30,932 nucleotides of DNA from Histomonas meleagridis 2922-C6/04-290x. Taxonomy: Eukaryota > Protista > Parabasalia. The position numbers were made by a program, and so were the translations under genes. The stretch lies in the NCBI GenBank assembly GCA_020184695.1, contig JAANOX010000010.1, positions 1 through 30,932 on the forward strand, in the 5' to 3' direction. This document shows, piece after piece, positions 1-30,932 of the stretch. The notes under the pieces were generated by a model that saw nothing but the letters and a program-made list of their open reading frames with translations, had not been told where the DNA came from and did no database searches. Positions within the stretch are counted from its first letter, which is position 1. Each line of letters starts with the position of its first letter.

Positions 1-251
1 AGTGCATTTGCTACACCATCTATAACAGGTGAGAATTTATCTGCTATTTTAATTCCTTTTGCAATAGCACCTGCATGACCAGGTAAATTTTCAATTCCAG
101 GTATTTTACCTACTGTATTTACAACAAGTTTAGCTACTTTATTCCATACATTACCAATAAATCTTCCGACTGGTTTAATAATTTTATTTTTAATCCAAGC
201 ACCTGCTTTTTTAAATCCATTTTTAATTTTGTTCCAAAAACTCCAAGCCAT
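1..251 (-). CDS. small amphipathic-leader protein 1 (3' end outside window; not in the ORF track)
   Basis: ATG at 251; open frame MAWSFWNKIKNGFKKAGAWIKNKIIKPVGRFIGNVWNKVAKLVVNTVGKIPGIENLPGHAGAIAKGIKIADKFSPVIDGVANAL. A homologous copy lies at 29459-29790. Confidence 0.75.
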   Translation of the reverse strand, partial: MAWSFWNKIKNGFKKAGAWIKNKIIKPVGRFIGNVWNKVAKLVVNTVGKIPGIENLPGHAGAIAKGIKIADKFSPVIDGVANA

Positions 252-286
252 AAATAATAATATATATAAAATATTAATTCTTTTTT

Positions 287-520
287 TTATTGATAAAATA
301 TGAGATGGATCTTGTCATTTGCTTCATTTCCTATATTTTTAAATAATAAAATTATTTTATCACCGGTTTCAAATATTTTATCCATAGGTAACTTTTTAAA
401 AGGTCTTATTTTTTTAATGTCTTCTTTATGTTGTTTAGCAAATTCATAACCTTTCACAATATGTGGACTAATTTTTTTAAATCCTTCTTTCATTTTTTTG
501 AGTAAGTTATATTTTCTTAT
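287..520 (-). pseudogene. small amphipathic-leader protein 2, N-terminal leader deleted in this copy
   Basis: Matches 29825-30097 from MKEGFKK onward, but the MAWGLWNKFKNG-coding segment present in copy C is missing here. Confidence 0.7.
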
Positions 521-534
521 GTTTCAGTAATAAG

Positions 535-765
535 TTATTTGTTTATTAAATCCTGTAATATTAACTTATTCCTAACTTTTTCTTTTACATCTTTAAATAT
601 TATTTTATCATTAGGTTTATATGGTAGAATTCTATTTTTATTACCTAAATTCTTTTCATGTTCTAACCATTTTTTCACATTTTTGTTGAATTTTTCTTGT
701 TGTTCTTTACTTAACTGAAATTTGCTCAAACCTTTTTTAATTTTATTCCAAAAACCCCAACCCAT
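535..765 (-). CDS. small amphipathic-leader protein 3 (76 aa, basic)
   Basis: MGWGFWNKIKKGLSKF...; TCATA Inr-like motif upstream; homologue at 30118-30348. Confidence 0.75.
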   Translation of the reverse strand: MGWGFWNKIKKGLSKFQLSKEQQEKFNKNVKKWLEHEKNLGNKNRILPYKPNDKIIFKDVKEKVRNKLILQDLINK

Positions 766-774
766 TTAAAAATT

Positions 775-792
775 ATGAAAAATATTTTTCAT
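775..792. promoter_or_regulatory. perfect 18-bp palindrome ATGAAAAATATTTTTCAT providing back-to-back TCAT Inr-like motifs for divergent genes
   Basis: Lies in the 35-bp spacer between ATG 765(-) and ATG 801(+); identical at 30358-30375. Promoter function is inferred from the trichomonad Inr consensus. Confidence 0.55.
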
Positions 793-1525
793 TTTTATTA
801 ATGTATTATAATAAATTACAAATTATGTCTAATAAAATATCTACTGGTTATCAACAAAATGAATGTTGTCGTGAAGGTTATTGTTATTCTACAATTAAAC
901 CCTATGCTGAAAAGAAAACTAGGAAATATACACATTCTTTATATGAAAATGTTTCAGAATATTCTCAATCTGTTTGTGGTACTTATGTTGATTTAAATAC
1001 AATTGCAGATGGAAATAAACATGATATCGAATTTGAAATGAATCTTCCATTTGAAGATATATTAGCTTTACAAGCATTTGATTTATATCCAAATAGATTA
1101 GTTGGTGATATAGAATTAAAGTTTTATGTTATTCAAAATGGTTTAGTATGGTGTCAAGTAGATCCACGTAAAATTAAAGAAGTTAAAGAATTTTTAGAAG
1201 ATTCTACTATTAATGCTATATTTAATAATTTACCTTTATTTACTCATGGTTTTACTCAAATAGGTAATTCTGCTAATATTACTACTACATTTAAATATGA
1301 TACTGAAACTAATCATACTATTGATACTGCAACTGAGAATGTTTCTTTATATTGTACAGGTTTAACAGTAGTTTCATGTAAATCTAATATGTTTGGATTT
1401 GGAGTTAAAGAAGAAACTTTAAATAAAATAGCTCAAATACTTCAACAACCTGGAGGTTTAATAATTCCTTCACAACAATTAGATTATAATGCATTTGCTT
1501 TAGCTGCTACTGAATCTGGTATACA

Positions 1526-2673
1526 TGTAGTAACCCGATTTGATCTCCAAATAAACGGTCATATATCGTAAAAAAAATTAACGGTTTTGATTGTTACTTA
1601 TTCGACCGGTCGGTTATTGATCGGTATGCATTGGAAAACTAGGTTTTTCAACATCGACCGATCAACCGACGGGTGTTTGTGTGCAATGTTTTTGTGCTAA
1701 TTGGAACGGTTGTGGTTAGATTATACTGGTGATAACGCAATTTCAACTGCAACAGAATACAAAACAGGTGGGTCGGTTGATGTTGATCGATTGATCAGTA
1801 GATCGATTGTCTTCATCGATCACCATGCTTTGCCAAACAAAGTCTGATAAAGAGTTCAAACATTTCAGTCAGAAAAAAGTATGCTAAATTTTTATTTAGC
1901 AGATATCTTTTTGACGAATTCAACTTCGTCAGGGCATCCAGGTGACCAATGAGGTTCACTCAGCCACATGTCTGATGGTGTCATCCACTTTCTTGTCATC
2001 TCATGAAGACCGTGGTGTCTCCATGCAAAGTTATATTCATAAATGACAGTTTGAAGATCGGATGCACCTTTGATATTTCATATGTTTCCACCACTCTTCC
2101 ATTTTCCCATTTTGTTGTGGTGTGTATGGTGCAGTTCGCAATCTTTATCCCATTGTGTGAAAGAATAGCTTGGTAGGGTTTACCAACAAACCTCCATTGT
2201 CGATAACAATCCGAGCTAGAGCTGAGGCATTTGTGATCTCTGATGGCTTTCCCCGTTGGATCTCTGGAAATGGAACTTGAGCAAGAGCAAATTCTTTTTT
2301 AAGGCGCTTGATTCCTATTTTTTCTTCCTTCATCAGCCCCTTGATTGTTTGCTTGTGTTCTTTTATTCTTCGTTCAAATTCTAATATTTGTTCGAATGTA
2401 TAGATTTGTTGCTTATAAGGACCTCTCTCCATTCAAAAAAAGTGAGTAAAGAATTCGAAATTAAATAATATTAATAAAGTATTACAATATTGAATTGATA
2501 CAGAAAATTCATAAATAATATTTTTATTACTTTGGTGAATCAAAATTCTAAAAATTATGCACTTTTATGACAGTTTTTATGTATGATTATTAAATATAAC
2601 CAACAACTTTTTGATTGCTTTACATCGACGACCGTTCATTCACCGTTCATTTGGAGACCAAATCGTTAGAACA
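1526..2673 (-). mobile_element. IS481-like (IS481EU-type) DNA transposon, internally deleted
   Basis: TGT...ACA ends. Imperfect ~33-bp TIRs (TGTAGTAACCCGATTTGATCTCCAAATAAACGGT vs reverse complement TGTTCTAACGATTTGGTCTCCAAATGAACGGT). Perfect 16-bp TSD CTGAATCTGGTATACA at 1510-1525 and 2674-2689. Confidence 0.85.
1900..2432 (-). pseudogene. rve/IS481 transposase remnant
   Basis: Frameshifted motifs IVIDNGG (second D), RTAPYTPQQNGKMEEWW (catalytic E) and YEYNFAWRHHGL...TP (C-terminal YNxxRxH...TP motif); first D region absent. 3' boundary approximate. Confidence 0.8.
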
Positions 2674-3316
2674 CTGAATCTGGTATACAATCTACTATTA
2701 ATATGCCTTTATTTAATGTTACAACTATTACAGTTGTATTTCCAAAACATGCTAATGATTATACTTGTTTTGATAATCCTATTTATAATAATGTACAATT
2801 AACTATTGCAGGTCAAAATTATCCTGATGAACCAGTAAGTACTTTAGGTGCTAGATTTTGTTACAATATCAATTAGTTGCTTCTGATTTAGATGGTGGTA
2901 TACAATGTACCAAAGAATTCGAAGATTCTTTAACTATGGATAGAAATGATTCTAATGGTACAAGATATAATAATACATTAAGTGATGCTACCTCATTTAT
3001 GCTTAATATACAATGTGAACGTTCACGTGGTGGTTACGTATTCGACGGCTTATACTCTAACGGTCAAAACATCCCGATACAAATTAAGGGGCAACCTATA
3101 TATACTCAAGCTAACGATACTTATTATAATGTTGATGATACTGGAAATCATCCACCTCCTCCACAATTATTCATTTGTCGTGATACTTATTTCACATTAG
3201 ATTTACATAATGTATTGAAATATTATGCTAATGGTACTCCTGATGGTTATTAAATAAAAATTATTTGAAATTAGATCTCAATTTTATTTATATTAGAAGT
3301 ATTTTTTTTTATTTAC

Positions 3317-3544
3317 TCAATTTTGGTTGAGTGCTTCTTCAATTTGTTCATACATCGTATGAACCATCTCCGATTTTATATTCGGTCCATGTTTCTTGAT
3401 CCAATCATAAAGAAGATCAAGACTTCCCGGTACTAAGCATTCCAGGGGTTCTCTAGTGAACTCTCCTGTGCCCCAATGCACCAGGAAAGACACCACCCCA
3501 TTTTTAATGCGTGGCGCAGAGATGCTTTGAACTGGATATTTCAT
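3317..3544 (-). CDS. stand-alone chromodomain-like protein (75 aa from ATG 3544)
   Basis: YPVQSISAPRIKNGVVSFLVHWGTGEFTREPLECL fits the chromo pattern Y-x-V-x-x-I...G...(Y/F)LVxW...TxEPxxxL. Confidence 0.6.
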   Translation of the reverse strand: MKYPVQSISAPRIKNGVVSFLVHWGTGEFTREPLECLVPGSLDLLYDWIKKHGPNIKSEMVHTMYEQIEEALNQN

Positions 3545-4009
3545 TTTTAGATGTGAGGTGATTCTGAATATTTCAATACAGTTAAACTTTTTGATATATT
3601 TTTTTATTATTTTGAAACAAAACCCTTTCAAATATTAAGTACTTCGGTTAGAAATTAAGAAATATACGATCATAAAATTGAATAGCGATTATGTTGTTGT
3701 ATGATAGTTTTGATCACAATGACTTTTTGAACTGAATAAAGACTGTACTATCAAATATTTTTTTGTTTAAATAGTTTACTGATCGTATCCCATGATCTCG
3801 AAAATTAATTTATATCTTAAGTTAGTACATAACTGTAAAAATTGAATCTATCGTTAATTCAAAAGTGGGGAAATACGATAAAAATCAATTCATTTTTATA
3901 ACACTGATCCCCTGTCCATAAAAAATTACATAAAAATCATTATACATTTATTCATTCAAATGTGTCACCTTTCGAACGTTAAAAAATATTAATGACATTA
4001 AGTTTTTAT

Positions 4010-4402
4010 TTATATAACATTTTGAGCTTGATCATTTTGATTTTGAGGCATTACTGAGTTAGCATAATTTTGTAAAACATCCAATTTATTTACATAAGCA
4101 TTATAATTGTTAAAATCATCATTAAATATTTGATTTAATAATTCCATTTTAGATATTTGATAAGCTTGATCTAATTGTTCAGGTGTTATATTTTGTAAAG
4201 GATTTATTATAGTAGGATGATATTTTTCATCTATAAATTTATAAATTTGTTTTCTTAATAAATTATGATATTTATTATACACAGTTACAGTTAATGTTAT
4301 TACATTTTTATTTTTTACAATAGAAAACGAAGGTTTAATATTTATAGCACTAAAATCACAATCTTTAAATTCTTGTGCAAAGCACGTATAAAGAGATTCC
4401 AT
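4010..4402 (-). CDS. hypothetical virus protein (130 aa)
   Basis: Intact ORF, TCATT upstream, divergent from the ATPase; no recognised motif. Confidence 0.6.
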   Translation of the reverse strand: MESLYTCFAQEFKDCDFSAINIKPSFSIVKNKNVITLTVTVYNKYHNLLRKQIYKFIDEKYHPTIINPLQNITPEQLDQAYQISKMELLNQIFNDDFNNYNAYVNKLDVLQNYANSVMPQNQNDQAQNVI

Positions 4403-4441
4403 TAATAATAATGAATTGATTTTATAAAATTATTTTATTTT

Positions 4442-5242
4442 ATGGAAAACGATATTAATATTGATGCCTTAGATAATATGATTGATTATTGTTTATATAA
4501 AAATAAACCTAAATTAAATGAAGAATTAATAAGTGAAATTCATCCAGTGGTGAATGTACCTTATAATTCTTTAAATATAGCAGTAGGTAGACAAAGAAGT
4601 GGGAAAACTCAATGTATAATTAGAGAAATTATTAAAATTAGTAATATTAGTCCTAGAACTCATTTATTAATTTATATTAATAAAAATGGATTAAAAAATG
4701 ATCCCACTTTTGAATCATTAAAACCGCTAATAAAGATTACAATATTATATGTAGCTGAAAATCAAGCAGAAGATATAGTTAAAGATATATTAAAATGGAA
4801 ACAATTTTATAATGAAATTAAAAATAATCATTGGGAAAATAAAATAGTAGATAATCAAATATCTGAATTATTTGAAAAATTATATATTAATAATTTTAAT
4901 AATTTAACTTTACATACTATAATATTTTTTGAAGATTGTGCTAATAGTCCTTTATTTAAAAAACCTACTAATTATTTTAATCAATTATTTACTAAATTAT
5001 CTCATATTCAATGTTCTGTATTTTTCGCTGTACAATTTTGGAAATCTTTACCTGCTGAAGTTAAAGCTAATGTAAGTACTATATTTATATTTCCTAATTT
5101 CTCTAAACAACAATTAAGTTATATGATAGCTCAAATACCATTGCTCTATACTAAAGATCGAATTTATTCAGTTTATCAAAAACTGACAGAACATCAAAAA
5201 ATAATCGTCGACGTTAATAATCAAAAAATAAAAATTGAATAA
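4442..5242 (+). CDS. A32/FtsK-HerA family DNA packaging ATPase
   Basis: Walker A GRQRSGKT (4586-4609), Walker B-like TIIFFED, downstream H...Q motif (KLSHIQCSVFFAVQ) and LP...KAN, typical of Polinton ATPases. Confidence 0.88.
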   Translation: MENDINIDALDNMIDYCLYKNKPKLNEELISEIHPVVNVPYNSLNIAVGRQRSGKTQCIIREIIKISNISPRTHLLIYINKNGLKNDPTFESLKPLIKITILYVAENQAEDIVKDILKWKQFYNEIKNNHWENKIVDNQISELFEKLYINNFNNLTLHTIIFFEDCANSPLFKKPTNYFNQLFTKLSHIQCSVFFAVQFWKSLPAEVKANVSTIFIFPNFSKQQLSYMIAQIPLLYTKDRIYSVYQKLTEHQKIIVDVNNQKIKIE

Positions 5243-5273
5243 AAAATGAAAAATTAAAATTCATTTTTTTTTA

Positions 5274-6239
5274 ATGTTAAAAGGCCAACAGGGTATAGAT
5301 AATGAAATAGCTACTTATCTCAATGTTCTTGGTATTGATATGACTGCTGCTAAAGAAAACTTAAAACAATGGAGAAATAATCAATCCAATAAAACTATAA
5401 ATGATCTCAATAATCAAATAAAAATATGGCGAACATTAAAAACAACCATTATAGATGAGAATAATTTATGGGACAATATATTGACGTATTTACAAAATAT
5501 TCAACATCCATTTTTTGAGGATCTAGCCGCATTTCATCCAGAAGTACAAAAGGATGATGCTTTGGAAGAAACAGAATATGAAGATCATTTTTCATCAGTG
5601 CAGCCAACAATAACTATCGACGACATTAAACCAATTTTGTCTATTGAAAATCCACCATTGGGTTATGAAAAAGTGGACGGAAAATATCAAAAAAGATAAA
5701 CAAATACCAAAAGTTTACCACCACCTCCAAGACCTCATGAATATCAAATTAGAACTCATGATGGTAAAATGTATGATTTTATAGAAGATAAGAATAAATA
5801 TAAATATACTGGAGGAAGTAATGTTATATTGGATGAAAATATGGATACATTAGCTCATCTTATTCTTGATTTAAAGAAAGATGTAAAAAAAATTAGAGAG
5901 CTTCAAACAATAGAAGGTGCAAGAGAATTAGTTGAAAAACATAATAAAGATAAAAAGGATCCAAGATATCATTGGACTGCAATTGAAGAAGATATAAATA
6001 AGGATGGTATTCCAGATGTTATAGTTGCAGATCAACATAAAAGAGCAAAATTTGTAAATGGATGGACGGTTAAACAACATGACCTATATGAAAGTCAATA
6101 TATAAGATTTTTACAACAAAAATATGGTAGTCCACAAAATAGAAAACTTTTGAGAGCAAAAGGTCAACATATAGAGGATTTCGATGAATTTATTAATAAA
6201 TATATAAGAAAAGTTTCATATGATGATAATATGAATTAA
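5274..6239 (+). pseudogene. hypothetical virus protein with one in-frame stop (5697-5699), probably 3'-truncated
   Basis: ORFs 5274-5699 and 5769-6239 are in the same frame, joined by 23 sense codons; contains DINKDGIPD; TCATT upstream. Confidence 0.6.
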
Positions 6240-7248
6240 ATAAAGCTTTAGCTATAGATTCTATCGATTTCTTTGTAGTTATTTTATCATTTATTTTTGT
6301 ATTAGTATAGGCATAAAATAAAAATCTAGACCTAATTTCAACTGCTAATAAATAACAATATTTTGTTTCTGTTTTAGTGGTTTCATCATAACCAGAAAAA
6401 AATAAATCCATTTGATATTCACCATTATTACCAATATATTTTAGTTGATATTTATTTCTTTTATAAGGAAAATAATTTATATTAGGTTTAAATTGTGGAT
6501 CTAATTTTGAATAATCAATATGATATGGAAGTAAATAGTTATCAAATAAATATTTGTTTTTCGAACGAGATTTGAAACCTGTGTTAATATAAGGTGAATT
6601 CTTAGAATCTTCATAAATATTATAATTTCTATATATATTGTCATAAGGAAATTTACTAAAATATCGTAACAAATAATTACTATAAGCAGAATCGAATGTA
6701 AATACGTTCCCAATTTTATTATCGATTATTTCAATACCATATAAATATTCTTTTAATTTTTCACAATATTTATTAAATTTGAGAGGCTTTTTTTTAGCTT
6801 CAAAAAATTTGCGTGCAAACATCTCATTCAATTTTTTGATAATCGTTCTAATATAATATTCATAATGCTCTGGGATTGTTTTTCCTCCAATTTTTCCATT
6901 AATAGGTGTAATTTTTTCAGTTTTGATAAAAAGTTTAATAAAATTATATTTAAATTGCTTATAATCGTCAAATTGTTTATTTTTTATTTTTTCATCTGTT
7001 GTTCTTTCTAAGCTCACATCTATATAATAATTAACTAAATTGTTGTATGTTTCAACTAATGGCTTTGTACCAGTATTAAATTCAGGTGTAAAATTAAACT
7101 CCCTATTATATTTTTCATTCAAAAAATTAATAAAATTTTTAAGACTCAAATTACCTTTTAATTGTGAATTTTGATTATTTAATTCATTTTTAATCAATTT
7201 TTCGAATGAATCTTGTATTTCTCTCTTTCTTTTATAAACTGGATCCAT
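6193..7248 (-). pseudogene. Maverick rve integrase, truncated after the first catalytic Asp
   Basis: GEYQMDLFF...YLLAVEIRSRFLFYA...KKSIESIAKAL is the start of an rve core. Similarity stops at ~6240, where the frame runs into the antisense of the neighbouring gene. Confidence 0.75.
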
Positions 7249-7278
7249 ATAAAAAAATAAAATGAAATAAAATATTTT

Positions 7279-9252
7279 TTATTCTTCAAATACATTTAAT
7301 AAATGTTCATCTATTTTACCTGTTACTTTACCAACTATTGAATTTAATATTTTAGTAGTTATTACTAAATCATCTGATAATTTATTATTATCAAATAATA
7401 CTACATCACCAATTTCATAATCTGTAGTATTATTTACTTTAAAATAAAAATCTCCATGTGTAGCAAAATCAATAGTATCTTGTAAAATTTCGATTTCTCT
7501 TTTAATAACATCACCTATTGAAGCTTTATAACCAGTTTCATGTTTAGCTACACAAATACCTAAATATTCTTTATATGTACCTGTTGTTTTAACTGATGGA
7601 ATACAATCAGTTGATGAAGTATTTGTAACATATTTACCTTCATTGGTTAAAGCATAAACATTACCTGTTAAAAATACTGGTGAACCAATTTGAAATTGTG
7701 TTAAGTCTTCTGAAACAGGAGCATTATGAATAATAGTTGTATTTATTTGTGCAAGACCTCCAGTTCCTTCGAATGTATTAAATGTAGTTGCGATATAATA
7801 TATTGCACTATATGTATCAAGATAAGAACCATCATTTTGTTTCTTTTGTGTTACAGATTCAAAATATAATCTTCCATATTTTTTATCTGCAGTAGGTGTA
7901 CATCCATAAATTCTCCATAATAATTCTTATGTATTATCTGATTCTTCAATTATACTGTGAAATAAAGTTAATTTAGTAGATTCTAAACTAGTGAATTGAC
8001 CAGTAGCAGATTTTATATTTCCTGTATTAACAATACCATTAGTATTTACAGAGTACATAATTTCAGAGCAATTTATTTTTTTACAACCTATTGCTTCAAA
8101 AGATGAGGAGTAATAAAAACCATTTCCTTGTTTTGGTTGGAACTCAAGATAATCATCTAATGCTGTTATTCTCCAACTATAATCATTTCCATAACCATCA
8201 CTAGTATGCATATCTATGTGAGGACCTGTTTCTAAAACACCATCGTTATTAATAACTGCAATTGAAGGAACACTAATATCTAAATTTGAAGCTGAAGGTC
8301 CCGAATTTAAAGCAAAACCATTAATTGTTGAACAATGAATATCTTCTGTATTTGAACCTGTAGGAATAAATGTTAAATCATTATAACTATGTGTATGATT
8401 TGTTGCAGCATATTTTGTATCATGATTATGATCTTTTGAAGCATACTCTTCATGTGTATGTTCTGAGGGTGGAAATTTTTCAGGTTTATCAGTTAAATCA
8501 TTATAACTATGGGTATGTTCTGAAGGTGGAAATGTTTCAGGTTTATCAGTTAAATCATTATAACTATGAGTATGATCTGAAGGTGGAAATGACTGTGGTT
8601 TATCATTTAAATCAGTATAACTATGAGTATGATCTGATGAAGCATAGTTTACATGTTCATGATCTTTTTTAGCATAAATCTCATCATGATTATGATCATT
8701 TAAAGATATTTCAGATGTATCTACATTATTTATAGATGCACATTGAATATTCCCATTACTACCAAAACTTAATAATGTTCCAGTTTTTGATTTAAAATCT
8801 AATGAATTAGTATTAGCAGTTATTCTCCATGTATTATCTTTATCGTAATCTGTCTTATTATGCATATCAATATATTGACCAACTTCTACAACACCATCTT
8901 CTTTTAATGTGATAATAGCTGGAACATATAATTTTGTATCCCATTTACCACCTTCTGCAGTTGATAATTGAAAACCATTTAATGAAGTAACTTGTACATT
9001 CCCATTTACTGTTAAATCATTATTTATTGTATTATGTGTATGACTTTTTGTAGAATATTTTTCATCTGATTGTGATTTGTTATAATATAATTGTGGGATT
9101 GTAATCGAAGTTATAGTATTAAGTTTTTCTGTTATTTGATCATTTGTAGAATAATTTTCTAAAACTTCTTGTAAATCATCTTGGTCAATAATTTCAGGAG
9201 CAGCAATAACATTAGTTTTTATACCTTTTGTAGCATTCTCAATACTAAACAT
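7279..9252 (-). pseudogene. fibre/tail-fibre-like protein (657 codons) with a single premature TAA at 7927-7929
   Basis: The frame continues for 215 sense codons past the stop to TAA at 7279-7281. Contains HxH repeats and two GVxExGxxIDMH...WRITA modules. Confidence 0.7.
8452..8631 (-). repeat. 57-bp coding tandem repeat x3 (HTHSYNDLTDKPETFPPSE)
   Basis: HTH codons recur at 8631, 8574, 8517 and 8460 with exact 57-bp spacing. Confidence 0.92.
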
Positions 9253-9272
9253 TGATAAAAAATGATTTTTAT

Positions 9273-9617
9273 TTAATAAATTAATAATAATTCTAACATA
9301 AAATATTCTGGTTCAATTTCTTTACCATTCATTTCTTTAAACCATATTTTAAAATTTGGTTTTCTACTTTTATATTCATATTTCTTATATTTAGTCCTGT
9401 TTTCATTTGTATAAATACAAAAATAATCTTCATAATGATCACGTTCAATGAAATCAGCATGCATTGAAACATCAGATACTAAATATTCCTTAAATTTACA
9501 CTTACATTGTTGTACTACTATATATCTCCTCCGATTTTGAGAATCCACAAATTCAGGCGGAAAACGGTTTTCTTTTTGCGATGTACAAAAATACGTTTTG
9601 ATCACAGGTTTAAGCAT
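9273..9617 (-). CDS. small beta-rich virus protein, possible minor capsid (single jelly-roll)
   Basis: Intact 114-aa ORF, TCATT upstream; C-terminus FKIWFKEMNGKEIEPEYFMLELLLIY resembles Polinton penton C-termini, but the protein is short for a penton. Confidence 0.45.
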   Translation of the reverse strand: MLKPVIKTYFCTSQKENRFPPEFVDSQNRRRYIVVQQCKCKFKEYLVSDVSMHADFIERDHYEDYFCIYTNENRTKYKKYEYKSRKPNFKIWFKEMNGKEIEPEYFMLELLLIY

Positions 9618-9915
9618 TTATAAAAATGAAGTTTGCCATGAGACCAAACAATAACCGTCGTTTTTTGACTACTAACCTCCTGGCAAAGATAAATTGAATA
9701 GGATAAATGTCCGACCAAAGATAACCGGGGACAATTCGTGTTGGTTATGTGAGGTTTTTGATAGGTTTATGCGAAAAGTGGTGCTAAAAGTGCTATCGTT
9801 CCTATCAAAAAGTTTCGCGTTCTCTCAAAATTGAATGCGCATTCAAATTTTCAGACGAATTGTATGGCTCACAAAAATCATTTTGATTTTTGTTGCGAGC
9901 GGAGCGAGCACACTC

Positions 9916-9992
9916 GGGGGATTGGAGGGGTCTGAGGCCTCCGGAGGGGTCCGAAGGGCACCTCCGGAGGCCTCAGACCCCTCCAATCCCCC
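9916..9992. repeat. perfect GC-rich hairpin, 32-bp arms, 13-nt loop
   Basis: 9916-9947 is the exact reverse complement of 9961-9992. Confidence 0.95.
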
Positions 9993-10006
9993 CAATAAAA
10001 ACTTAA

Positions 10007-10084
10007 GGTCGGGAATAATCACGAGGACCCTAGGGGCCCCGCCGGGGGGCGGGGCCCCTAGGGTCCTCGTGATTATTCCCGACC
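10007..10084. repeat. perfect GC-rich hairpin, 37-bp arms, 4-nt loop
   Basis: 10007-10043 is the exact reverse complement of 10048-10084; lies 16 bp from the element terminus. Confidence 0.95.
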
Positions 10085-10434
10085 GCATTATATACCTACC
10101 AAAAACACATTATTCAAATCATAAATAAATAAAAATTGATACTTATTTTTCCCTACATTTTCAAATATGATTATAATTATAATTTGATTGATATGATATC
10201 AGAATTTTATTTAAATTCTCCTGCTGAGTTCTGAAAAAAAGTTGTTAAAATATGCATATAAAACATGTTTTCTTCTACCAACGATTATTTTTCATACAAA
10301 AAGTATATAACCGTTCTTTTTTTTTTTTTTATTTATTTATTTTTATTTTTTTTTCTTTTGAATATCGCAAATCGTTCAGTTGAAATAAAATGAATTCATC
10401 AAAATCTAGAGTGGCATCAATAAGGGGATTGACT

Positions 10435-12056
10435 CGGTAAAAACCTAGTTGACCCATGTTATCTTTTGAAAATTAAAAAATTTTAAACAATTTTTTGTCG
10501 AGATTTTATAAAAAAAAATAATCTTTTATTCATAACTTTGTTCTCTTCTTATTTTTTGATAAGACCAAGAAATCTGGTGAATTTCTGAAGTGCCGTACTC
10601 GATCAGCATACCTCTCATCAACCTTGATGTAGAGGATATTGTCATTCTGAGAATATTCTGTTAGAAGTCCTCCTTTCCGAAAGGCATTTACAACGCATCT
10701 TGGAACAGTAGACATTATATATTATGAATCATAAATCCTTATAACTTCCCATGTTTGAGGAGAAAGTGTTGAATCAAGATATATGTTGGCCATTTTTCCC
10801 TTAATGATTTGCAAAAAGACCGATGTCAAAAAATTGCAATTGATCGCTCGAATGCAAAGGAATATATCTAAGATATACATTGTTCTCGGATAAATAGTCA
10901 TCAATACCATCGGTTCCATGGCACGAACACCCATCAAGGATTAGAATTGCTGGACCATCATATCCAGTTATTTGTCGTCTTATTTGCAAATCTTTCAAGT
11001 AACAATCATCCAACCATTTCTTAAATATCCTTGCATTGATATACCCAGTATCGCTTTTGGAATATGTTATTTTATCTGTTGTGTATCCCAGCTGAAGTAA
11101 TTCCAAATCAACTGTTTCTCTTTGAATAACAATTAGTGGCTTGATAACTGAACCATCTGCAACTATTGCAGCAATCATTGTGTGGTGATCCACATTAACA
11201 TCTTGCTCAATTGGAATTTCATTTCCAACATATTCCATCGGTACAACACAAGAAACATCGCGATCAAGTTCGCGTCCACCAAAGCCTACTTCATCAACAT
11301 TTACAACAAATGATGCTGGTATTGGAAATTCAAATGTTTCATGAAATTGCTTGAACCATTCATCTATTTGGCTTTCATCGCAGTGGACACGATCTGCTTC
11401 CATTTATGTCCCCTTGATCAACCTGAATAACTGCGAGTTAGATATCATATGCCTTACAGATTCTGGAGTTAGAATCATTTCGAAAGCATTAAAAACGAAA
11501 TTAACTGTTCTTTGTATTGTGCATTGGGTCTTCTGGTTATATTGTGAAGAAATGTAACTACTTAATCTTTCCATTTGTTGATCATTAAGTATAGATGGAT
11601 GCCCAATATTTCCAGGTTCTCCATTCCACTTGCAATAAGAACTTATTACATTAAAAATCCTTTGTTTAGATACACCAAAAAAATCTTCCCAATGTCTGAC
11701 ATCGAAAGTTCTCTTTCTTTTCCATTATAATAGAGGTTATATATTTGCTCACGCTTTGAGGATGCATTAGAGTTCCATTGTAATATTTCATATGCAATCT
11801 TTGCTTTGTCCGGACAAAACAGATAGACTGCCCCAAGGTCTAATTGATCAAGAGTACACGGATTCTCAAGAATGCTTCTGCTGTGTGGAAACTGAAAGTA
11901 TTCTTCGGGTTTCTCCAGCATCCGAACATTTAATAAAGTGAAAAAACGCTAGAAGATTTTGATCGTATCACAAATTTTAAATGCATCAATCTCAATTTTT
12001 AACTTTTTCAAAACTTTGTCAATAATAATTTGTCACAGTCAACTAGGTTTTTGCTG
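10435..12056 (-). mobile_element. pogo/Tc5-like DNA transposon relic
   Basis: Inverted 19-bp ends (CGGTAAAAACCTAGTTGAC at 10435-10453; GTCAACTAGGTTTTTGCTG at 12038-12056 followed by TA); the left TA is not preserved. Confidence 0.6.
10530..11921 (-). pseudogene. DDE_1-type transposase, fragmented
   Basis: NVDEVGF, LILDGCSCH and PLHSSDQLQFFD motifs in ORF 10801-11403; flanking fragments 11646-11921 and 10530-10715. Confidence 0.8.
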
Positions 12057-12394: not shown

Positions 12395-14362
12395 TTGCTG
12401 ATGATTTTTTTATGTTTTTTTGCTCTACCATTGATGGTAATTTTGGATGACTATATTCCAAGTTCAGAATTTTCAAATGAGTGGAGTGGGAAAACAATGG
12501 GGGACAATGTTTTTATTGGAACAGCAGATGGATGTTTTCATTGCATTAATATTATTACAGGGGAATTAATGTGGTCTATAAACACTGGTGGCTCAGTATT
12601 TCGTTCGTCTGATAAAAAACAAAGTGCTTTTATACCAACAATTGATGGATTTTTATTTCGATTTATTGAAGGTTATGGATATCGTCGTGTCCCTTTATCG
12701 ATACGTGATCTTGTATTTTTTTCTCCGTATCAAACTGACACTGAAATATACTTATCTACCAAGTCTGTTCAAGTATTTTTTATTGATTCCAATGGCAAAA
12801 TAATATCAACGTTTCAATCCACCTCCACCTCGACTGGGATACCATTTAATAGAAGCTGTGTCACAGTTGCACGTGTTGATTATATTTTAAATGTTATTAC
12901 TGATAATGATAATAGCAAATTAATCAAATATTCTTCATTTGAAATTCTATCTGGAGCACCGACGAGTGGGCCTATTCATCGGGTACAACTTAAAACCACT
13001 TTTTTAGGCTCTATTACCATATCAGTTAATGATACAATAATTTCAAACTTAAAGTTAAAAGGATTTCCAATTTGTGTAATTGGCTCTTTTGACAAATTTA
13101 AGTTTCGGATGAGTTCCAACGATGAACCATTAGAGCCTGAAACGGCCACAATGGTGATCATCGAAGGGATTCAAGTTGTTGTACCCTCCGTACCACTTGA
13201 TAAACTAAAGGAATCCGACGTGCTCGATGACAACATCGACTTAGGCATCATTAATGAGAAACAGCCATTCTTTGCATTTCGTTCGTTTACATTTGCAAAT
13301 GGCGAATCACTTGACGACGAACAATTTCATTATGTTATCATCTCTAAGAAATTTTCGTACAATTTTTTTTCTTTAATTTGTTTTTTAACATATTCTGCGA
13401 TGCGTATTATCCAATATTTAATGAAACGCTTAAAAGACACAATAGATGCGTCAATACGTATCATTGTAAATGAGAATAATCCTGAAATAGGAACATTTAA
13501 TAATGCAAATTGTAGTATTGTTAAAACTAAAAATACCGATGAAATAATATTAAAAGCGTTAAGCGAAATGAACATCCCTGGAATACCTAAGATAATTGCG
13601 TATGAAATTGATGGCGATGAAACGACAATAGCTTTACAACCTGTTGTAAAATATAATTTCAAAAATTTCGATGCCCAAAATTTCTTACGTAAAACAATCG
13701 AAACACTTTCGTCGTTGTTTAAGTATGGATATGTTCATGGATCTATACGACATGATTCATTTTTCGCAGATGTTGATGGTAACCCATTAATTGGAGGCAT
13801 CGAAAACACTGCGCATCCTTCAATCGACGAAGAAGAGCGTGCTAAAGATATATACTCGATTAAAGAAGTTTTATCTTTGTATCCAATTAAGGATTACCTT
13901 TTGGATGACTTGTTAAGTGAAATGGGCCTTGATGATTACAGAGAACGGCCAACGCCTTCTGAAATACTAAGGCATCCGTTCTTTATCTCGGGGCTGCAAA
14001 AGCTGAACATCATTTCACACGCAAGTGAGTTTTTGCAGTCAAAAAAGGCTCGAGAAAAGCAATTGTTACAAATATTCGAATCACAAAGTAGATACATAAT
14101 CGGACTGAATTGGATGAACTTCTTGAATAAAGAGCTGGTGGATGAGGCAACAAAACATTGCGATTATTCAGGTGAATCAATCGCAGATTTAATTAGATTC
14201 ATGAGAAATAAATGGGCACATTCGCCAACGTTGCCAAAAAGTGGTAATGATAAAGCAGAGAGAGTGTCGGCTGATGAATACTTCGCGTTCTTTCATAACT
14301 TGTATCCTAATCTGTTTTTATATTTGTATTATTTTATTGATAAATATGAGGTTTTGAATTAA
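12395..14362 (+). CDS. IRE1: IRE1-like type I membrane protein: luminal domain, TM helix, degenerate kinase, KEN RNase domain
   Basis: Hydrophobic N-terminus (likely start at ATG 12401). Luminal motifs GTADG..H.I...TGE..W and IPTIDG.L...VPLSIRDLV..SP. TM segment FFSLICFLTYSAM. RPTPSEILRHPFF. KEN motif DLIRFMRNKWAH and YF.FF...YP.LF. Confidence 0.85.
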   Translation: MLMIFLCFFALPLMVILDDYIPSSEFSNEWSGKTMGDNVFIGTADGCFHCINIITGELMWSINTGGSVFRSSDKKQSAFIPTIDGFLFRFIEGYGYRRVPLSIRDLVFFSPYQTDTEIYLSTKSVQVFFIDSNGKIISTFQSTSTSTGIPFNRSCVTVARVDYILNVITDNDNSKLIKYSSFEILSGAPTSGPIHRVQLKTTFLGSITISVNDTIISNLKLKGFPICVIGSFDKFKFRMSSNDEPLEPETATMVIIEGIQVVVPSVPLDKLKESDVLDDNIDLGIINEKQPFFAFRSFTFANGESLDDEQFHYVIISKKFSYNFFSLICFLTYSAMRIIQYLMKRLKDTIDASIRIIVNENNPEIGTFNNANCSIVKTKNTDEIILKALSEMNIPGIPKIIAYEIDGDETTIALQPVVKYNFKNFDAQNFLRKTIETLSSLFKYGYVHGSIRHDSFFADVDGNPLIGGIENTAHPSIDEEERAKDIYSIKEVLSLYPIKDYLLDDLLSEMGLDDYRERPTPSEILRHPFFISGLQKLNIISHASEFLQSKKAREKQLLQIFESQSRYIIGLNWMNFLNKELVDEATKHCDYSGESIADLIRFMRNKWAHSPTLPKSGNDKAERVSADEYFAFFHNLYPNLFLYLYYFIDKYEVLN

Positions 14363-14818
14363 TAAAATAAGAATAAATATGGAATAGAAATTTAATGTTA
14401 TTAATAAATATATATTATAATATTTATGGTAATTTTTTCTTTTAATATTTGGTGTTCGTACCGACTTTATTTCCATGAATAAACATATTTATGGATCAAA
14501 CATAATGGTTTAGACGGTTTAGAAATCTCTGATGAAATTGGTTGCGATGCAACGCCTTCCATTTTGCGGTTTATGAGCGATATAGATTTGAAAGGAAAAA
14601 AAATGGCGAATCTCGAATTAATTCAAATTCGCGACACTTCACTTTTATAAAAGTGACATTTTATCGAAAAAGTGACATTTAATCCACATGCCAAAATTAG
14701 CCATTAATTCGTTACGATATTATAAGGGTAGAGCATTTAAAGAAATTATAGTATTACCCGACAATTCAGCAGTTAGTTGATTATGCATTTTTTTTCTATT
14801 ATCTTCCATCATTTGGAA

Positions 14819-14820
<2 letters not shown>

Positions 14821-14855
<35 letters not shown>
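14821..14855. repeat. (AT)n microsatellite, 35 bp
   Basis: Direct reading. Confidence 0.95.
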
Positions 14856-14856
<1 letters not shown>

Positions 14857-14925
14857 CATTAGCAAGTAATAGTATTACTCAACAATTTTATTGTTATTAA
14901 TCATCCTTTTTATATTCTCTTCCAA

Positions 14926-16302
14926 ATGATTATTTTTGTGAAATCAAAATATCACAAAAAAGTGATTTTTCATCAAGATAAAAATTTATCTTTATCTGTG
15001 GATCAAAATATTTTACAATCAATTAGAAAACATGATAAATATCTTCAAAAAAATTTTATTGATTATATTATTAATAATTTTGGCGGTTCAATTATTATAT
15101 ATTTAACAAAAATATATTCAAAATAATTAGTAAAAATTAATGAGACTGACTATGTTTTTGGATTATCTTGGATTTTTCCTTGGGCAGCTTCTACATTATA
15201 TAGTATTAATTACAGTTGTTTTATGATAGATGCCACATTTATAGCTATAAAGCCTTATACATTGTCAATATTAATTATCATTATAAATAATGAATCAATT
15301 CCTATAGGTTTGTCTATTTCTCCTACCGAAACATCAAATTCTTATGGGAGATTATGGAATTATTAGATAAATTGCTGTAGAAATTTTAAATTGTTTTATC
15401 AAGAACAATATATTTTTAGCAGATATTGGTTCTGCTATTAAAAAATTTATTGAGAATAATAATTCAAATATTAAATATTGCCATCGCCATTTTATAGAAA
15501 AATTTGGTTCTGCAAGTATGATTGGAAATTGGATTTCAAGAATTATTAATACTTTCAATCCACATGAATTTCAAATGATTACTTATTATTAAAAATGTAT
15601 CACAAATAATTTTGAATTCGAAAATTCAAAAAAATTTCGATAATGAAAAATTTCAAAATTTTTTAATGGTTTTGGGTGTGAAAGAATCAGATTTTATACA
15701 TAATATTGATAGGTGGGCAAAATGGTTAAGACCTGGATGTCCTACCACTACTAATTCTTTAGAATCGATCCATAGTCATATTAATTCGACAATTCCATTT
15801 AAAGGTACTTTTATAGAAAAATTAAAGAATGTAAAAAATGTATTGTGGAATAGATTTAATTCAAGAAATGAATGGCACGGCAAAAACTTAATTAAATATA
15901 TAAATAAATTAAAAAAAGATGGTAGTAATGAACAAAAATTATTGGGGAATTGTACTTGTGGAGTATGAATTTTACTCCAAATTATATCAAAATAAGCATA
16001 TTCCATGTAAACATACAAATGTAGATTTCTGCAATAAATTTAAAAATTTAAAATTAGATTCTTTGGAAATTGTTGATAATGTGCTAATTATAAATATTGT
16101 AGAAACTCAGATTATCAATGAACCACTCCCTGAAAATTGGAATGATAAAAACAAAAATAATAATGGTAATACTGAAGTTATACGTAAAAAAAAAGCTCCA
16201 GTGGTACTAAATTCTCCAAGTTCACAATTTGCATGGGATATTATTTATTCCATCAAAAATATCATTAAAAAAAGTATGTGGAATGAAAAATGCATTCCAT
16301 AA
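14926..16302 (+). pseudogene. MULE transposase, degraded
   Basis: IDATFIAIKPY...NNESIPIG...PTET (first D), CHRHFIEKFG (CxxH), TTNSLESIHSHIN (E), CTCG...IPCKH (SWIM-like) across broken frames. Confidence 0.8.
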
Positions 16303-16516
16303 TAAGTATTGTTATTGAAAATGGTACAAATGTAGATATTGGTAATGTCCAGCAGTTAGCTTTATGGAGAATCAAAAGTTACATATTTGTTGGTATAGAA
16401 TTTGTATAATGATTACAATAAATAAAAATAAATAAATAATAAATAAAAATAAATTAAAAAATATAAAATAATTTTTTATTCATTGAAATATATATTTGAG
16501 ATATTGAATCAAATGT

Positions 16517-16680
16517 AAAGATCAAATATTGTGTGAAAGATCAAACCTTGTAAAAGATCAAATAATGTGTGAAAGATCAAACCTTGTAAAAGATCAAATA
16601 ATGTGTAAAAGATCAAACCATGTGAAAGACCAAATAATGTGTAAAAGATCAAATTCAAATCATATATAAAAGACCAAATC
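16517..16680. repeat. tandem repeat, 36-bp dimeric unit (AAAGATCAAATAATGTGTG + AAAGATCAAACCTTGTA), ~4.5 copies
   Basis: Direct reading; subterminal within MULE relic 1. Confidence 0.88.
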
Positions 16681-17302
16681 AAGTGTGCGATGTAATGTGT
16701 TTCAGGTTGCAAAATGATAATAAATTTTGGCAGTCTAATAATTGTATCAAAACAATCATTCAGTTGATAACCATATAATATCGATTCAAATATAATAGGT
16801 GTATTGAGACATTTAGTTAGTCGACTTTTTGATAAAATGTCACTTTTTAAAAGTGAAGTGTCGCGAATTCGAATTAATTCAAGATTTCCCGCATAAATGA
16901 TTTAACATGTCAATTTAAATATTTTTGAATGCTTATCTGCTCCGGTATTCTGACAGTTGTTACGGCGCGGGAAAATGATAATTCAATTCGTACAATGAAT
17001 AATGTAAACATTGATAATTTACAAACGTTGCTTTGAATTAAGTGAAGAAAATATTCAAAAACATTCTTCTCTATTTATAGAAATATCAAACGATCAAAAA
17101 ATGATCCATTATCATGTAATATAGTAGTGTATATTAATTACCCAGACTCCAGCGATATATATGTAATATGTGTAATATATATATATAGAATAATTTCATG
17201 ATTCGCACTGAATAAATTTATTTTCTCATTTTAAAAAGTGACAAAAATCGACTCTTGCATAATTTATATCGAACGATAGCAGCAACAATAAGTGAAGATA
17301 GG

Positions 17303-21732: not shown

Positions 21733-21868
21733 TATCCAAACAAAAGAACAAATTCATTGATTTTCTATTTATTATGATCCGTTTATTATACATAAAAAAA
21801 CCGCGCTCCAAGTTCATTTCATACGAAGTTTCTAAATAAACATACAACATTCGAATTTTTTGCTTATG

Positions 21869-22140
21869 TAATAATGTACAATTAACTATTGCAGGACAAA
21901 ATTATTCTGATGAACCTATTTCTACTTCAGTTGCTAGATTATTACAATATCAATTAGTTGCTTCTGATTTAGATGGTGGTATTCAATGTACTAAAAAATT
22001 TGAAGATTCTCCAACTATGGATAGAAATGCGTCAAATGGTACAAGATACAATAACACATTAAGTGATACTACATCAATTATGTTTAATATACAATGTAAG
22101 CGTTTACGTGGTGGTAAGTATTCGATGGGTTAGATTTAAA
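21869..22140 (+). pseudogene. isolated fragment of the putative major capsid gene (third copy)
   Basis: High nucleotide similarity to ~2788-3060 (NNVQLTIAGQNY.DEP.ST...LQYQLVASDLDGGIQCT). Confidence 0.88.
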
Positions 22141-22249
22141 TGGATGATATATCCTGATCTTCCTCCATTCCGCGATTTTTACGACCGTTAAAAACCGTTT
22201 CTCAATATGAATGCTTTGTTTAAATTTGTTCGAAATATTGCAATTGATA

Positions 22250-23300
22250 GAATTCTTGTTCATTCATTGTTCAATCTTTGTTTGCTCATTATTTGTTCTC
22301 ATTCATTCTGGTTTGTTTTATTAATTCATTTATATTTATTCTTGCTTATTCTTGTTCATTTTTATAAATAATTCTTGTTTATTCTTCTTTGTTCATTGTT
22401 TTTTCTTGTTTATTTTTTTATATTCATTGTTTACTCTACATTATTCTTGTTTATTTCTGCTTATTCTAATTTATTCTCATATGTTCTTGTTTGATCTCAT
22501 TTATTCAGATTAATTCTTTCTTTATTCTCATTTGTTCATGGTTTATTCTTATTTATTCTTTGATTATTCACATTAATTCAGTGATTATTCTTATTATTTT
22601 ATCGTTTATTCTTGTTTATTCATTGATCATTCTTATTAATTCATTGATAATTCATCATTTATTCTTATTTGTTCATTATCTTTCTCAAATATTCATTGTT
22701 TATTCTTGTTTATTCATTAATTAATCTGTTTATTCATTATTTATTTTCATTAATTCATGTCTAATATATTTTCTCATTGTTATTCATCGTTTATTCATGT
22801 TTTATATGTTTAAGATGTTTTATCATTTTTACCCAATAATTATTAACGTCAAATATATTTTTTTATTCTTATTAACTAAATTTCGATGTTTATTGCATAT
22901 TCATGCAATATTATATCATTATTTTTTTATTGTTTATTAATGTTTAATATGTTTTTCATTATCATTATTTTTCATGTTCATATGATTTTTTCTTTTTTAT
23001 TTTTTGTTTTTGATTATTATAAATAAGTTTTATCATCGTATTGCATATTTTATTAATGTTTAATATGTTTTCTCGTTACCATTTCTCCTTTATTTATGTT
23101 CAATATTCTTTTAATTTATTTTTTATTTCATATAGGGCACTTTTTATCGTTCTGATTCATTATTTTTTTTCTTGTGTGTGTTTTTTTCTTATTCTTTCAT
23201 TTCTCGTGATGTTAATGCGTTTTTTCTTTACTAATATAATTATTTTTATTATTCAATATTTTTTGATATATTTTATTATTGACTCGTATTTCTATTTTTG
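22250..23300. repeat. strand-biased low-complexity tract (TTATTCTT/TTATTCAT/TTGTTCAT variants)
   Basis: Very T-rich top strand; the bottom strand reads as decayed E/Q/N/K/I-rich codons with many stops. Confidence 0.6.
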
Positions 23301-27967: not shown

Positions 27968-28193
27968 GATAAAAGTGCAATCGTTATTTTGTATCGTTCT
28001 TCTGAATTTTTTGTTCTGAATGTACAGTCCTATCGTCATACAAAAGGTGTAAAGTGTCGAAATGCTAAACGGTTTTTGAGCGTAACTTTGAAAATTAATG
28101 GTGAATATTTTATATCTCTCAAAGTCAGGCCACGTAAGATTATATCAAAATTGTATGCATTCAATTGACTTCAGTGAATAACATGCAAAGGAA

Positions 28194-28610
28194 GGTAGGT
28201 ATATAATGCGGTCGGGACTGATCACGAGGACCCTAGGGGCCCCGCCGGGTTATCGGCCTCCGGAATTGCCCTTCGGACCCGTAGGCCTCCGATTCCTCCA
28301 ATCCCCCGAGTGTGCTCGCTCCGCTCGCTACAAAAATCAAAATGATTTTTGTGAGCCTACAATTCGTCTGAAAATTTGAATGCGTATTCAATTTTGATAG
28401 AACAAGAAACTTTTTCGAAGGGACGATAACACTTTTAGCACCACTTTCACTTTTCGCATAAACCTATCAAAAACCTCACATAACCAACACGAATTGTCCC
28501 CGGTTATCTTTGGTCGGACATTTATCCTATTCAATTTATCTTTGCCAGGAGGTTAATTGTCAAAAAAAGCGACGAATATTTTTTGAATGCATGGCAAACT
28601 TTATTTTAAA
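28194..28610. repeat. left TIR of copy C, hairpin region partly deleted
   Basis: Inverted match to 9620-10100, lacking ~65-70 bp between the two hairpins. Confidence 0.9.
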
Positions 28611-29458: not shown

Positions 29459-29790
29459 TTAAGGACGCCTGGGATTTGGAATAGTTTCAAAACAATATAT
29501 ATATAAATAATATTTTATTATTTCTTTTTGTCCAACTAGCGCATTTGCTACACCATCTATAACAGGTGAGAATTTATCTGCTATTTTAATTCCTTTTGCA
29601 ATAGCACCTGCATGTCCAGGTAAATTTTCTATTCCAGGTATTTTACCTACTGTATTTACAACAGGTTTAGCTACTTTTATTCCATACATTACCAATAAAT
29701 CTTCCAACTGGTTTAATAATTTTTATCTCTGAAGTAAGCACCTGCTTTTTTAAATTCATTTTTAATTTTGTTCCAAAAACCCCAAGCCAT
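29459..29790 (-). pseudogene. amphipathic-leader protein 1, frameshifted
   Basis: MAWGFWNKIKNEFKKAG..., then two +1 insertions in homopolymer runs relative to 1-251. Confidence 0.75.
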
Positions 29791-29824
29791 AAATAATAAT
29801 AAAAATAAAATATTAATTCTTTTT

Positions 29825-30097
29825 TTATTGATAAAATATAGGATGGATCTTGTCATTTGCTTCATTTCCTATATTTTTAAATAATGGAATTATTTTATCA
29901 CCGGTTTCAAATATTTTATCCACAGGTAACTTTTTAAAAGGTCTTATTTTTTTAATGTCTTCTTTATGTTGTTTAGCAAATTCATAACCTTTCACAATAT
30001 GTGGACTAATTTTTTTAAATCCTTCTTTCATTTTTTTAAGTAAAGGTCCTATTTTCTTTATTCCGTTTTTAAATTTGTTCCACAAACCCCACGCCAT
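29825..30097 (-). CDS. amphipathic-leader protein 2, intact (90 aa)
   Basis: ATG 30097: MAWGLWNKFKNGIKKIGPLLKKMKEGFKKISPHIVKGYEF... Confidence 0.75.
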   Translation of the reverse strand: MAWGLWNKFKNGIKKIGPLLKKMKEGFKKISPHIVKGYEFAKQHKEDIKKIRPFKKLPVDKIFETGDKIIPLFKNIGNEANDKIHPIFYQ

Positions 30098-30117
30098 AAA
30101 TAATAATAAAAATAAAT

Positions 30118-30348
30118 TCATTGTTTTATTAAATCCTGTGATATTAACTTATTCCTAACTTTTTCTTTTACATCTTTAGATATTATTTTATCATTATATT
30201 TATATGGTAGAATTCTATTTTTATTACCTAAATTCTTTTCATGTTCTAACCATTTTTTCACATTTTTGTTGAATTTTTCTTGTTGTTCTTTACTTAACTG
30301 AAATTTGCTCAAACCTTTTTTAATTTTATTTCAAAAACCCCAACCCAT
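30118..30348 (-). pseudogene. amphipathic-leader protein 3 with W6 TGG>TGA nonsense change
   Basis: Otherwise near-identical to 535-765. Confidence 0.78.
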
Positions 30349-30383
30349 TTAAAAATTATGAAAAATATTTTTCATTTTTATTA

Positions 30384-30932
30384 ATGTATTATAATAATAC
30401 GCAATCTAAAAATGAACAAGATGATCAAGGTAATGTTGGAGCTTATTTTGATCGTCTTAAAGATTTAATTGCTAAAAATGATGGTACTCGTTCTTTATTT
30501 TAAGAACTGAAGATTGTCATGATCAAAATGCACCCTTTTTAATCAATCACAAGAAACTAGATTAAGAATTACTCATGGTGATCATATGGTTTCACAAATA
30601 ACTGAAGGTTTTATTAATTTTAAACTTAGAATAACTGTACAATTATCAAAAGCTATTTCATCTAGTAATTTGACAGATCCTGAGAATTTAGCTAAAATAT
30701 TTATAGGTTTTAAGAGTTCTAATCAATTATTAGATCAATGACAAATTATGTCTAATAATATTTCTACTGGTTATCAACAAAATGAATGTTGTCGTGAAGG
30801 TTATTGTTATTCTACAATTAAACCCTATGCTGAAAAGAAAACTAGAAAATATACACATTCTTTATATGAAAATGTTTCAGAATATTCACAATCTGTTTGT
30901 GGTACTTATGTTGATTCAAAAACATCATAATA
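30384..30932 (+). pseudogene. putative major capsid gene 5' part (retains the ~340 bp deleted in copy A; frameshifts and a stop)
   Basis: MYYNNTQSKNEQDD...ETRLRITHGDHMVSQITEGFINFKL...KIFIGFKSSNQLLDQ*QIMSNNISTGYQQNECCREGY. Confidence 0.65.

Follow-up and report, generated by a model that had tools for sequence, protein, structure and literature searches.

What are the three short genes at the left end of this DNA, and why do they begin alike? The window, as we call the whole stretch analyzed here, comprises 30,932 nucleotides of a Histomonas meleagridis contig (JAANOX010000010.1). A first-pass annotation described three tandem minus-strand genes within positions 1 to 765 that share a protein-VI-like leader and then diverge completely. 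It read them as a "lytic leader + variable cargo" cassette for endosome escape or egress, or as an antimicrobial or toxin set. The leader that they share stands up: a degenerate 24-nt pattern matched five minus-strand leader starts in the window (251, 765, 29790, 30097, and 30348; one with a mismatch), whereas across 100 shuffled windows it matched nowhere (mean 0.00, maximum 0). Codons 2 to 15 of the three leaders are identical at 31 to 34 of 42 nt. The array is also repeated near the right end, as had been claimed: by blastn, block 1-814 (copy A) has a second copy at 29538-30397 (copy B) that is 90.5% identical.

All of these genes are on the minus strand. In copy A, gene 1 (1..251) has an intact leader and encodes 83 aa until the window edge; it belongs to class A and is the core gene of the family. 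Gene 3 (535..765; 76 aa) also has an intact leader and is an orphan beyond it. Between them lies a remnant of gene 2 (287..493; 68 aa), a class B gene whose 5' end and leader are gone. The description of three leader genes at 1-765 therefore holds for genes 1 and 3 and fails for the middle one. The quoted gene 2 leader, MAWGLWNKFKNGIKK, was found in copy B only (30097-29825), where gene 2 (29825..30097; 90 aa) is intact and is a class B orthologue. However, gene 1 of copy B (29530..29790; left boundary approximate) has its leader and a downstream frameshift, and gene 3 (30118..30348) has an early stop at codon 6. Therefore, neither copy has three intact genes, and the trio as described combines genes from two provirus copies, both decayed.

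The leader genes point away from a major capsid protein gene that begins at 801 in copy A and at 30384 in copy B. The copy A capsid gene (801..3253, plus strand; located by tblastn) is decayed: approximately residues 6 to 127 are absent, there is a ~1.15-kb insertion near 1520-2672, and there are frameshifts. In copy B, the window holds the frameshifted 5' part (30384..30932, plus strand). Both are broken copies of a ~550-aa protein with 467 homologues. The predicted fold of an intact relative (locus L041) comes from a poor model (pLDDT 44); even so, each of the 10 best PDB matches is a double-jelly-roll capsid, including Sputnik (E=1.1e-4), PBCV-1, and SGIV. Gene 3 and the capsid gene are separated by a 36-nt palindromic spacer (766..801) with TCAY(T/A) on each strand, at -13 and -12. 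This motif resembles the trichomonad initiator consensus (PMC4693282), and its arrangement makes the spacer a likely bidirectional promoter. Of 17 starts checked, 11 carry the initiator-like motif, and those of genes 1 and 2 lack it; the capsid-proximal site belongs to gene 3.

Element A, which includes copy A, also has a packaging-ATPase-like gene (4442..5242, plus strand), with a product that is 63% identical to a protein of metagenome locus L022 and had no Pfam match. Its right terminal repeat (9623..10100) contains two GC-rich hairpins, and element B begins with a left terminal repeat (28194..28607) that is inverted relative to it. Between the elements is a host IRE1-like gene (12401-14362) with a beta-propeller and an RNase 2-5A domain, apparently intronless. 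We infer that the elements are polinton-like viruses of the Metamonada group, endogenous and decayed, in a parabasalid genome, from the low-confidence capsid model and the terminal repeats, with the ATPase and the element A integrase recognized by eye only and the host assignment drawn from the initiator-like motifs at 11 of 17 starts and from an Atlas protein cluster described below. The viral, polinton-like context that had been proposed is supported, at the low confidence of the capsid model, as is a fixed linkage to the capsid gene. Metamonada Maverick/polinton-like viruses likewise have a divergent double-jelly-roll capsid and many copies per genome (PMC10120064), and, given how divergent its capsid module is, the group is described as still unplaced (10.64898/2026.06.19.733378). 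By eye, the Hexon, PacK, P2375, and Cahpentoid proteins of Meldvirus canis8760 "trichomonad" (Meld8760; PMC11071296) resemble proteins of the window or of the metagenome loci, PacK resembling the product of 4442..5242. At the level of annotation, none of the 14 Meld8760 proteins is encoded by a small amphipathic gene. Assignment of a 115-aa gene at 9273-9617 as the penton is unproven, and we set it aside; its by-eye Meld8760 counterpart, P2375, is annotated apart from Penton.

The leader/capsid region is a family of many divergent copies. Two DNA runs, which are not independent and may be the window's own source, gave 1764 and 1710 contigs over the first 1540 bases. Contig depth is lower over genes 2 and 3 than over gene 1 and the capsid gene, but such depth is unsuited to ranking genes. 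Contigs in two runs cover gene 1 and the capsid gene; that these runs are RNA is a guess, and we do not read the contigs as expression. Joints from 261/270 to 542-544 in run X2 resemble copies without gene 2 but are ambiguous: loose ends at 542 match the region upstream of gene 2 in copy B, and the joints may be intact gene 2 starts aligned onto the gene 1 leader. A 983-nt contig of run X6, a run whose type is also a guess, has another leader variant that starts near the contig end.

Genes with this leader occur in relatives, as expected. Five of seven candidates were close homologues of gene 1. A profile search had 232 matches at E<=0.001; among the matches listed (150 of 232), 149 were new identifiers and 58 were <=300 aa. 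Manual reading placed the leader at the N-terminus of 49 of these 58. The 91 longer matches were set aside as tape-measure-like without individual checks; most have several matching stretches, as repeats do. Two short matches, P0151 and P0088, have another amphipathic start, one with a C-terminal hydrophobic span, and are possibly analogous proteins of other viruses.

A metagenome scan retained 44 loci from 525 pattern matches. At 32 of the 44, the leader gene or genes are head-to-head with a ~550-aa capsid gene. At the other 12, six contigs end just upstream, three leader genes adjoin bacterial-looking DNA, two (L026 and L028) have a fibre-like gene upstream instead of the capsid gene, and one is unclear. 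The three bacterial junctions (L014, L024, and L031) are likely chimeric assemblies. Many loci are near-identical, so they are not independent events. Two tandem leader genes are present at 18 of the 44 loci, and many relatives have a single gene. We built a capsid tree from 21 rows (the window plus 20 of the 32 linked loci), in which a single clade (support 100/100) united the window with all 8 two-gene loci and the 12 single-gene loci fell outside. Therefore, the multi-gene state is confined to that clade: there is one gene in some lineages, two in the window's sister clade, and three in the window. The trio is probably a lineage-specific duplication of one gene.

These genes are a large, hitherto unnamed family. 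We did not find a description of it in the literature; bioRxiv supplements and parts of the files of Buck et al. could hold one. Capsid gene and leader family queries had no matches in a viral-contig collection. A search of viral contigs with gene 1 gave four loci (L001 to L004) that were rejected as tape-measure-like, the matches lying inside long frames with Trp repeats. The predicted structure of gene 1 had no BFVD match at E<=0.001, and named Atlas clusters had no usable match. Look-ups of clusters gave either no name or only "hypothetical protein". One look-alike Atlas cluster contains 310 hypothetical proteins, with Parabasalia the commonest phylum, although the phylum is known for only 3 members. 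The putative hosts of these viruses are likely trichomonad-type gut protists.

The leader is under purifying selection, as had been supposed, with pN/pS of 0.16 to 0.26 (uncorrected; pairs not independent). The pairwise value was 0.157 over codons 2 to 15 of 31 leaders. Because the leader itself was used for retrieval, we ran controls. In 24 class A genes, codons 9 to 15, to which the retrieval pattern does not extend, had a ratio of 0.23; six leaders of class B, gene 2, or gene 3 that were not retrieved by the pattern had 0.26. Among the variants listed (40 of 59), the synonymous share of changes was 6/7 in gene 1, 5/12 in gene 2, 1/3 in gene 3, and 7/15 in the capsid gene. Copies A and B differ at three codons of gene 2 and four of gene 3, all non-synonymous; this is expected because both copies are decayed.

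The helix that had been suggested is predicted, and it is strongly amphipathic and cationic. We analyzed 62 class A proteins, including 37 of the 49 short profile matches and proteins from 19 loci, and left out 12 short matches that were truncated, extended, or chimeric looking. The mean hydrophobic moment of residues 4 to 21 was 0.62 versus 0.25 for shuffled sequences, and 62 of 62 exceeded the shuffled 95th percentile. Taken singly, the window leaders had moments of 0.44 to 0.50 over residues 2 to 19 (p=0.05 to 0.10). Mean charge over residues 1 to 15 was +3.9 (n=62), acidic residues occupied 11 of 930 leader positions, and W-G-x-W-x-K was near-invariant. The amphipathic stretch reaches approximately residue 45 to 50 in genes 1 and 2. 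For gene 1, AlphaFold predicted helices at residues 3 to 47 and 59 to 81, with confidence mainly in residues 1 to 20 (pLDDT 83 to 84). An MG start occurs in 8 of the 62 proteins only, and N-myristoylation was rejected as a family trait. Dermaseptin-type antimicrobial peptides start GLWSKIK.

Beyond the leader, the genes are not arbitrary. We built profiles of class A and of class B, the capsid-proximal genes, without the window genes. After residue 15, gene 1 scored 18.1 bits on the class A profile and gene 2 scored 13.0 bits on the class B profile; neither score was reached by any of 1000 shuffles. Gene 2 and class B have a common C-terminal motif, E(T/S)xxxI.P.(F/Y)K. Cross-class scores were weak but not nil (reached by 34 and 21 of 1000 shuffles), and hhalign (97.6%) matches the class A profile to the class B profile across 23 columns, as far as a conserved K..P. 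Complete divergence was therefore an overstatement. Genes 2 and 3 are also collinear over ~60 post-leader residues, although not significantly (p=0.08). The leader genes are paralogues that differ in age rather than one leader joined to arbitrary cargo. The cassette model is not supported: genes 1 and 2 have conserved C-terminal classes, and many relatives have only one gene.

Is the leader protein VI? The helix quoted for adenovirus, AFSWGSLWSGIKNFG, is correct and was matched in natural loci (L052, L061, and L065). Natural protein VI genes made up 9 of 20 pattern loci, and 8 were aligned. The lytic helix of protein VI (residues 34 to 54) and the family leader are both N-terminal, Trp/Gly-rich, cationic amphipathic helices. 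Their moments, by equal measure, are 0.55 to 0.62 and 0.62, and both genes adjoin the major capsid gene of a double-jelly-roll virus. However, protein VI has a 33-residue propeptide, whereas the leader proteins have none, are 70 to 140 aa long, and come as one to three paralogues. Their spacing is W-G-x-W rather than W-G-S-x-W, and their charge is higher. Homology was not detected: hhalign gave 0.3% against the 8 natural protein VI N-termini, and no protein VI was among the PDB or Pfam matches seen for the family. Protein VI scored 3.7 to 5.1 bits on the family profile, which 46 to 453 of 1000 shuffles that kept the hydrophobic pattern also reached. It did beat plain shuffles (4 to 36 of 1000), but a tape-measure-like segment scored higher, at 11.3 bits. 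The family may work like protein VI, yet it is apparently not protein VI, and the match is one of helix pattern only. An unrelated 110-aa viral ORF (L057:395-724) starts MSWGSIWTGIK, which is nearer to the protein VI motif than the leader family is.

Macc is an umbrella term for membrane-active capsid core proteins (10.1101/2024.03.25.586562; PMC11071296), with context given elsewhere (10.1101/2024.03.23.586382; PMC12220804). As published by Buck et al. in 2024, it covers small, basic, capsid-linked proteins proposed to be membrane active, is polyphyletic, and is mostly hypothetical. It includes capsid-linked adintovirus genes for PLA2X, GasderminX, and cupiennin-like proteins (PMC8502044; 10.1101/2025.02.07.637071), and adomavirus LO6 is a virion component (10.1101/341131). 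The leader genes lie in a virion-gene module beside the capsid gene and have a membrane-active domain by prediction only, and they add to the Macc category. By eye alone, adomavirus Macc after RRRRGG (GFFSKLG...VVPVIK, FLPIAQQKGKEFL) resembles both class A GFFSKVG...IVKPVAK (P0140) and class B ALPAIKKGSEFI (L013). In the published Macc proteins there is a basic propeptide upstream, along with GG cleavage sites; the leader family lacks both. Neither of two pattern scans aimed at cupiennin-like and adomavirus Macc genes turned up a viral protein of that kind.

We lean toward the following explanation, by analogy with protein VI. The leader genes would encode virion-internal, capsid-packed proteins whose N-terminal helix ruptures a vacuole membrane at entry, and they were duplicated in one clade. 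The viral context, selection, helix, occurrence in relatives, and linkage fit a protein-VI-like entry role. Linkage, selection on the leader, helix pattern, and paralogy were observed, whereas expression, packaging, and lysis are proposed, as follows. The genes would be co-expressed with the capsid gene from a putative shared promoter, and the small basic proteins would pack against the inner capsid surface, with the lytic helix perhaps doubling as a packaging tag. Uncoating would release the proteins and free the helix. Its Trp/Phe/Ile face would insert into the membrane and its Lys face would lie on anionic lipids, causing vacuole rupture. The helix starts at residue 2 or 3 with no propeptide ahead, and adenain-like motifs are not enriched (16 of 62 versus 18.5 expected), so proteolytic maturation would not be needed. 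No protease was recognized when 25 proteins of the window and 28 of the loci were scanned against Pfam, although remote ones could escape such scans. In the proposed history of tandem duplication, class A would be ancestral, class B old in the clade, and gene 3 lineage specific. The duplicates would have kept the helix while their tails drifted or specialized.

Not every copy need be functional. Perhaps only the class A gene, or classes A and B, works, and gene 3, having arisen recently by duplication of promoter and leader, is dispensable and without a function of its own. This concerns gene 3 only and is compatible with an entry role for the family. A homologue search with gene 3 found none, its tail did not score on the class A or B profile, copy B has the stop, and four of four differing codons are non-synonymous. 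However, its 61 post-leader codons are open, which was equalled in only 5 of 5000 shuffles, and it bears the capsid-proximal initiator site. Its leader differs from that of gene 2 at 3.5 of 6.7 synonymous versus 7.5 of 35.3 non-synonymous sites. We regard dispensability of gene 3 as somewhat unlikely.

The same proteins might instead be non-lytic core or scaffold components, with the helix serving mainly as a capsid-docking tag and the basic bodies condensing DNA or anchoring an inner membrane. The three intact proteins all have a net charge of +11 to +12, basic amphipathic helices also suit DNA or capsid binding, and the near-invariant W-G-x-W-x-K suggests a specific partner rather than a generic lytic helix. 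A common tag with differing tails has a precedent in adenovirus, where the pVI and pVII N-termini are rivals for a single hexon pocket (10.1101/857581). The family also has weak matches to lipid-binding helices. The 11-residue Trp repeats of phage tape-measure proteins and the helices of synuclein and apolipophorin score on the family profile. The tape-measure repeats, however, are internal to far longer proteins (1562- to 1729-aa frames at L001 to L004), and for all of these likenesses the best reading is that amphipathic helices have converged. The leader's high moment, exposed Trp, and scarcity of acidic residues are as in membrane-active helices, and among the 25 window proteins and 28 locus proteins scanned against Pfam, no other candidate for breaching a membrane was recognized. 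A purely non-lytic role is unlikely in our estimation, and a core or tag function is compatible with entry.

Egress could also employ such proteins, as non-structural viroporin- or holin-like factors made late with the capsid protein that permeabilize the nucleus or cell. The promoter position shared with the capsid gene and the glycine-zipper-like tails of some class A members would suit this, and a role in egress has been put forward for pore-forming proteins encoded by polinton-type viruses (10.64898/2026.10.13.758929). However, only 1 of the 62 proteins has a transmembrane-like 19-residue window, and the capsid-linked adomavirus counterparts are virion components (10.1101/341131), making an egress role quite improbable. 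Most improbable is the antimicrobial or toxin set of lytic leader and variable cargo: the leaders have the charge and moment of cationic antimicrobial peptides, the gene 3 tail is an orphan, and the putative hosts live amid gut bacteria, but no signal-peptide-like core was found in the 62 proteins (11-residue hydropathy peak in the first 30 residues, mean 0.28, maximum 0.95), the gene 1 and 2 tails are conserved orthologous classes, many relatives have a single gene in a position tied to the capsid gene, and no antimicrobial-peptide family was among the Pfam matches seen (14 proteins in full; 25 of 50 families otherwise).

Membrane rupture at entry by virion-internal proteins, the reading that we favor, has a more specific version that we consider rather unlikely. 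In it, the leader protein would be related to the adomavirus/adintovirus core lytic protein but protease-independent, or "pre-matured". In one clade it would have given rise to two or three paralogues with a common lytic helix that docks to the capsid. These would vie for the capsid cavity, as adenovirus pVI and pVII do, and split membrane rupture and genome delivery between them. If this were true, a pre-matured core protein would supply the missing entry machinery of the most abundant known endogenous DNA viruses in protist genomes, and protein-VI-type entry would be linked across animal and protist viruses. Mavericks account for roughly one-third of the genome in some trichomonads (PMC10120064). 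An infectious non-enveloped particle would need a gene of this kind, conserved, under selection, linked to the capsid, and coding for a lytic-type helix; a pure transposon would not. The leader gene is a handle on whether trichomonad Mavericks form infectious particles and infect new cells. It is also a virus-group marker for gut metagenomes, a source of a short testable peptide, and a gene overlooked by annotation. The trio is secondary to this, a case of paralogue expansion.

Other features lie elsewhere in the window. In element A, a Cahpentoid-like gene of 156 aa (relatives have 400 to 520 aa) overlaps tail-to-tail with a truncated integrase-like gene at 5769-7248, which suggests a large internal deletion, and no polymerase or primase match was found within 1-10100. 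A 75-aa minus-strand ORF at 3317-3544, which we take by eye to be chromodomain-like, had no Pfam or PHROGs match. A DDE_1 transposase remnant (10801-11921) is followed by two elements bounded by inverted repeats of 43 to 65 nt and 73 to 78 nt (14609-16886 and 17362-20031). An ORF at 17500-18174 has a weak match to the C-terminal domain of poxvirus poly(A) polymerase (E=0.0011). A third decayed element (21864-28000) contains a fragment of the capsid C-terminus (21864-22132), pieces of polymerase B (24772-26268), and part of an rve integrase (26596-26802), and it is broken by a 21-nt tandem repeat at ~22250-23130. Finally, the hairpins in the right terminal repeat of element A are near-perfect, GC-rich, and 37 bp long (9916-9992 and 10007-10084), and the left end of element B has half of the outer hairpin only (28194-28249). 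These hairpins are a possible replication origin or end structure.
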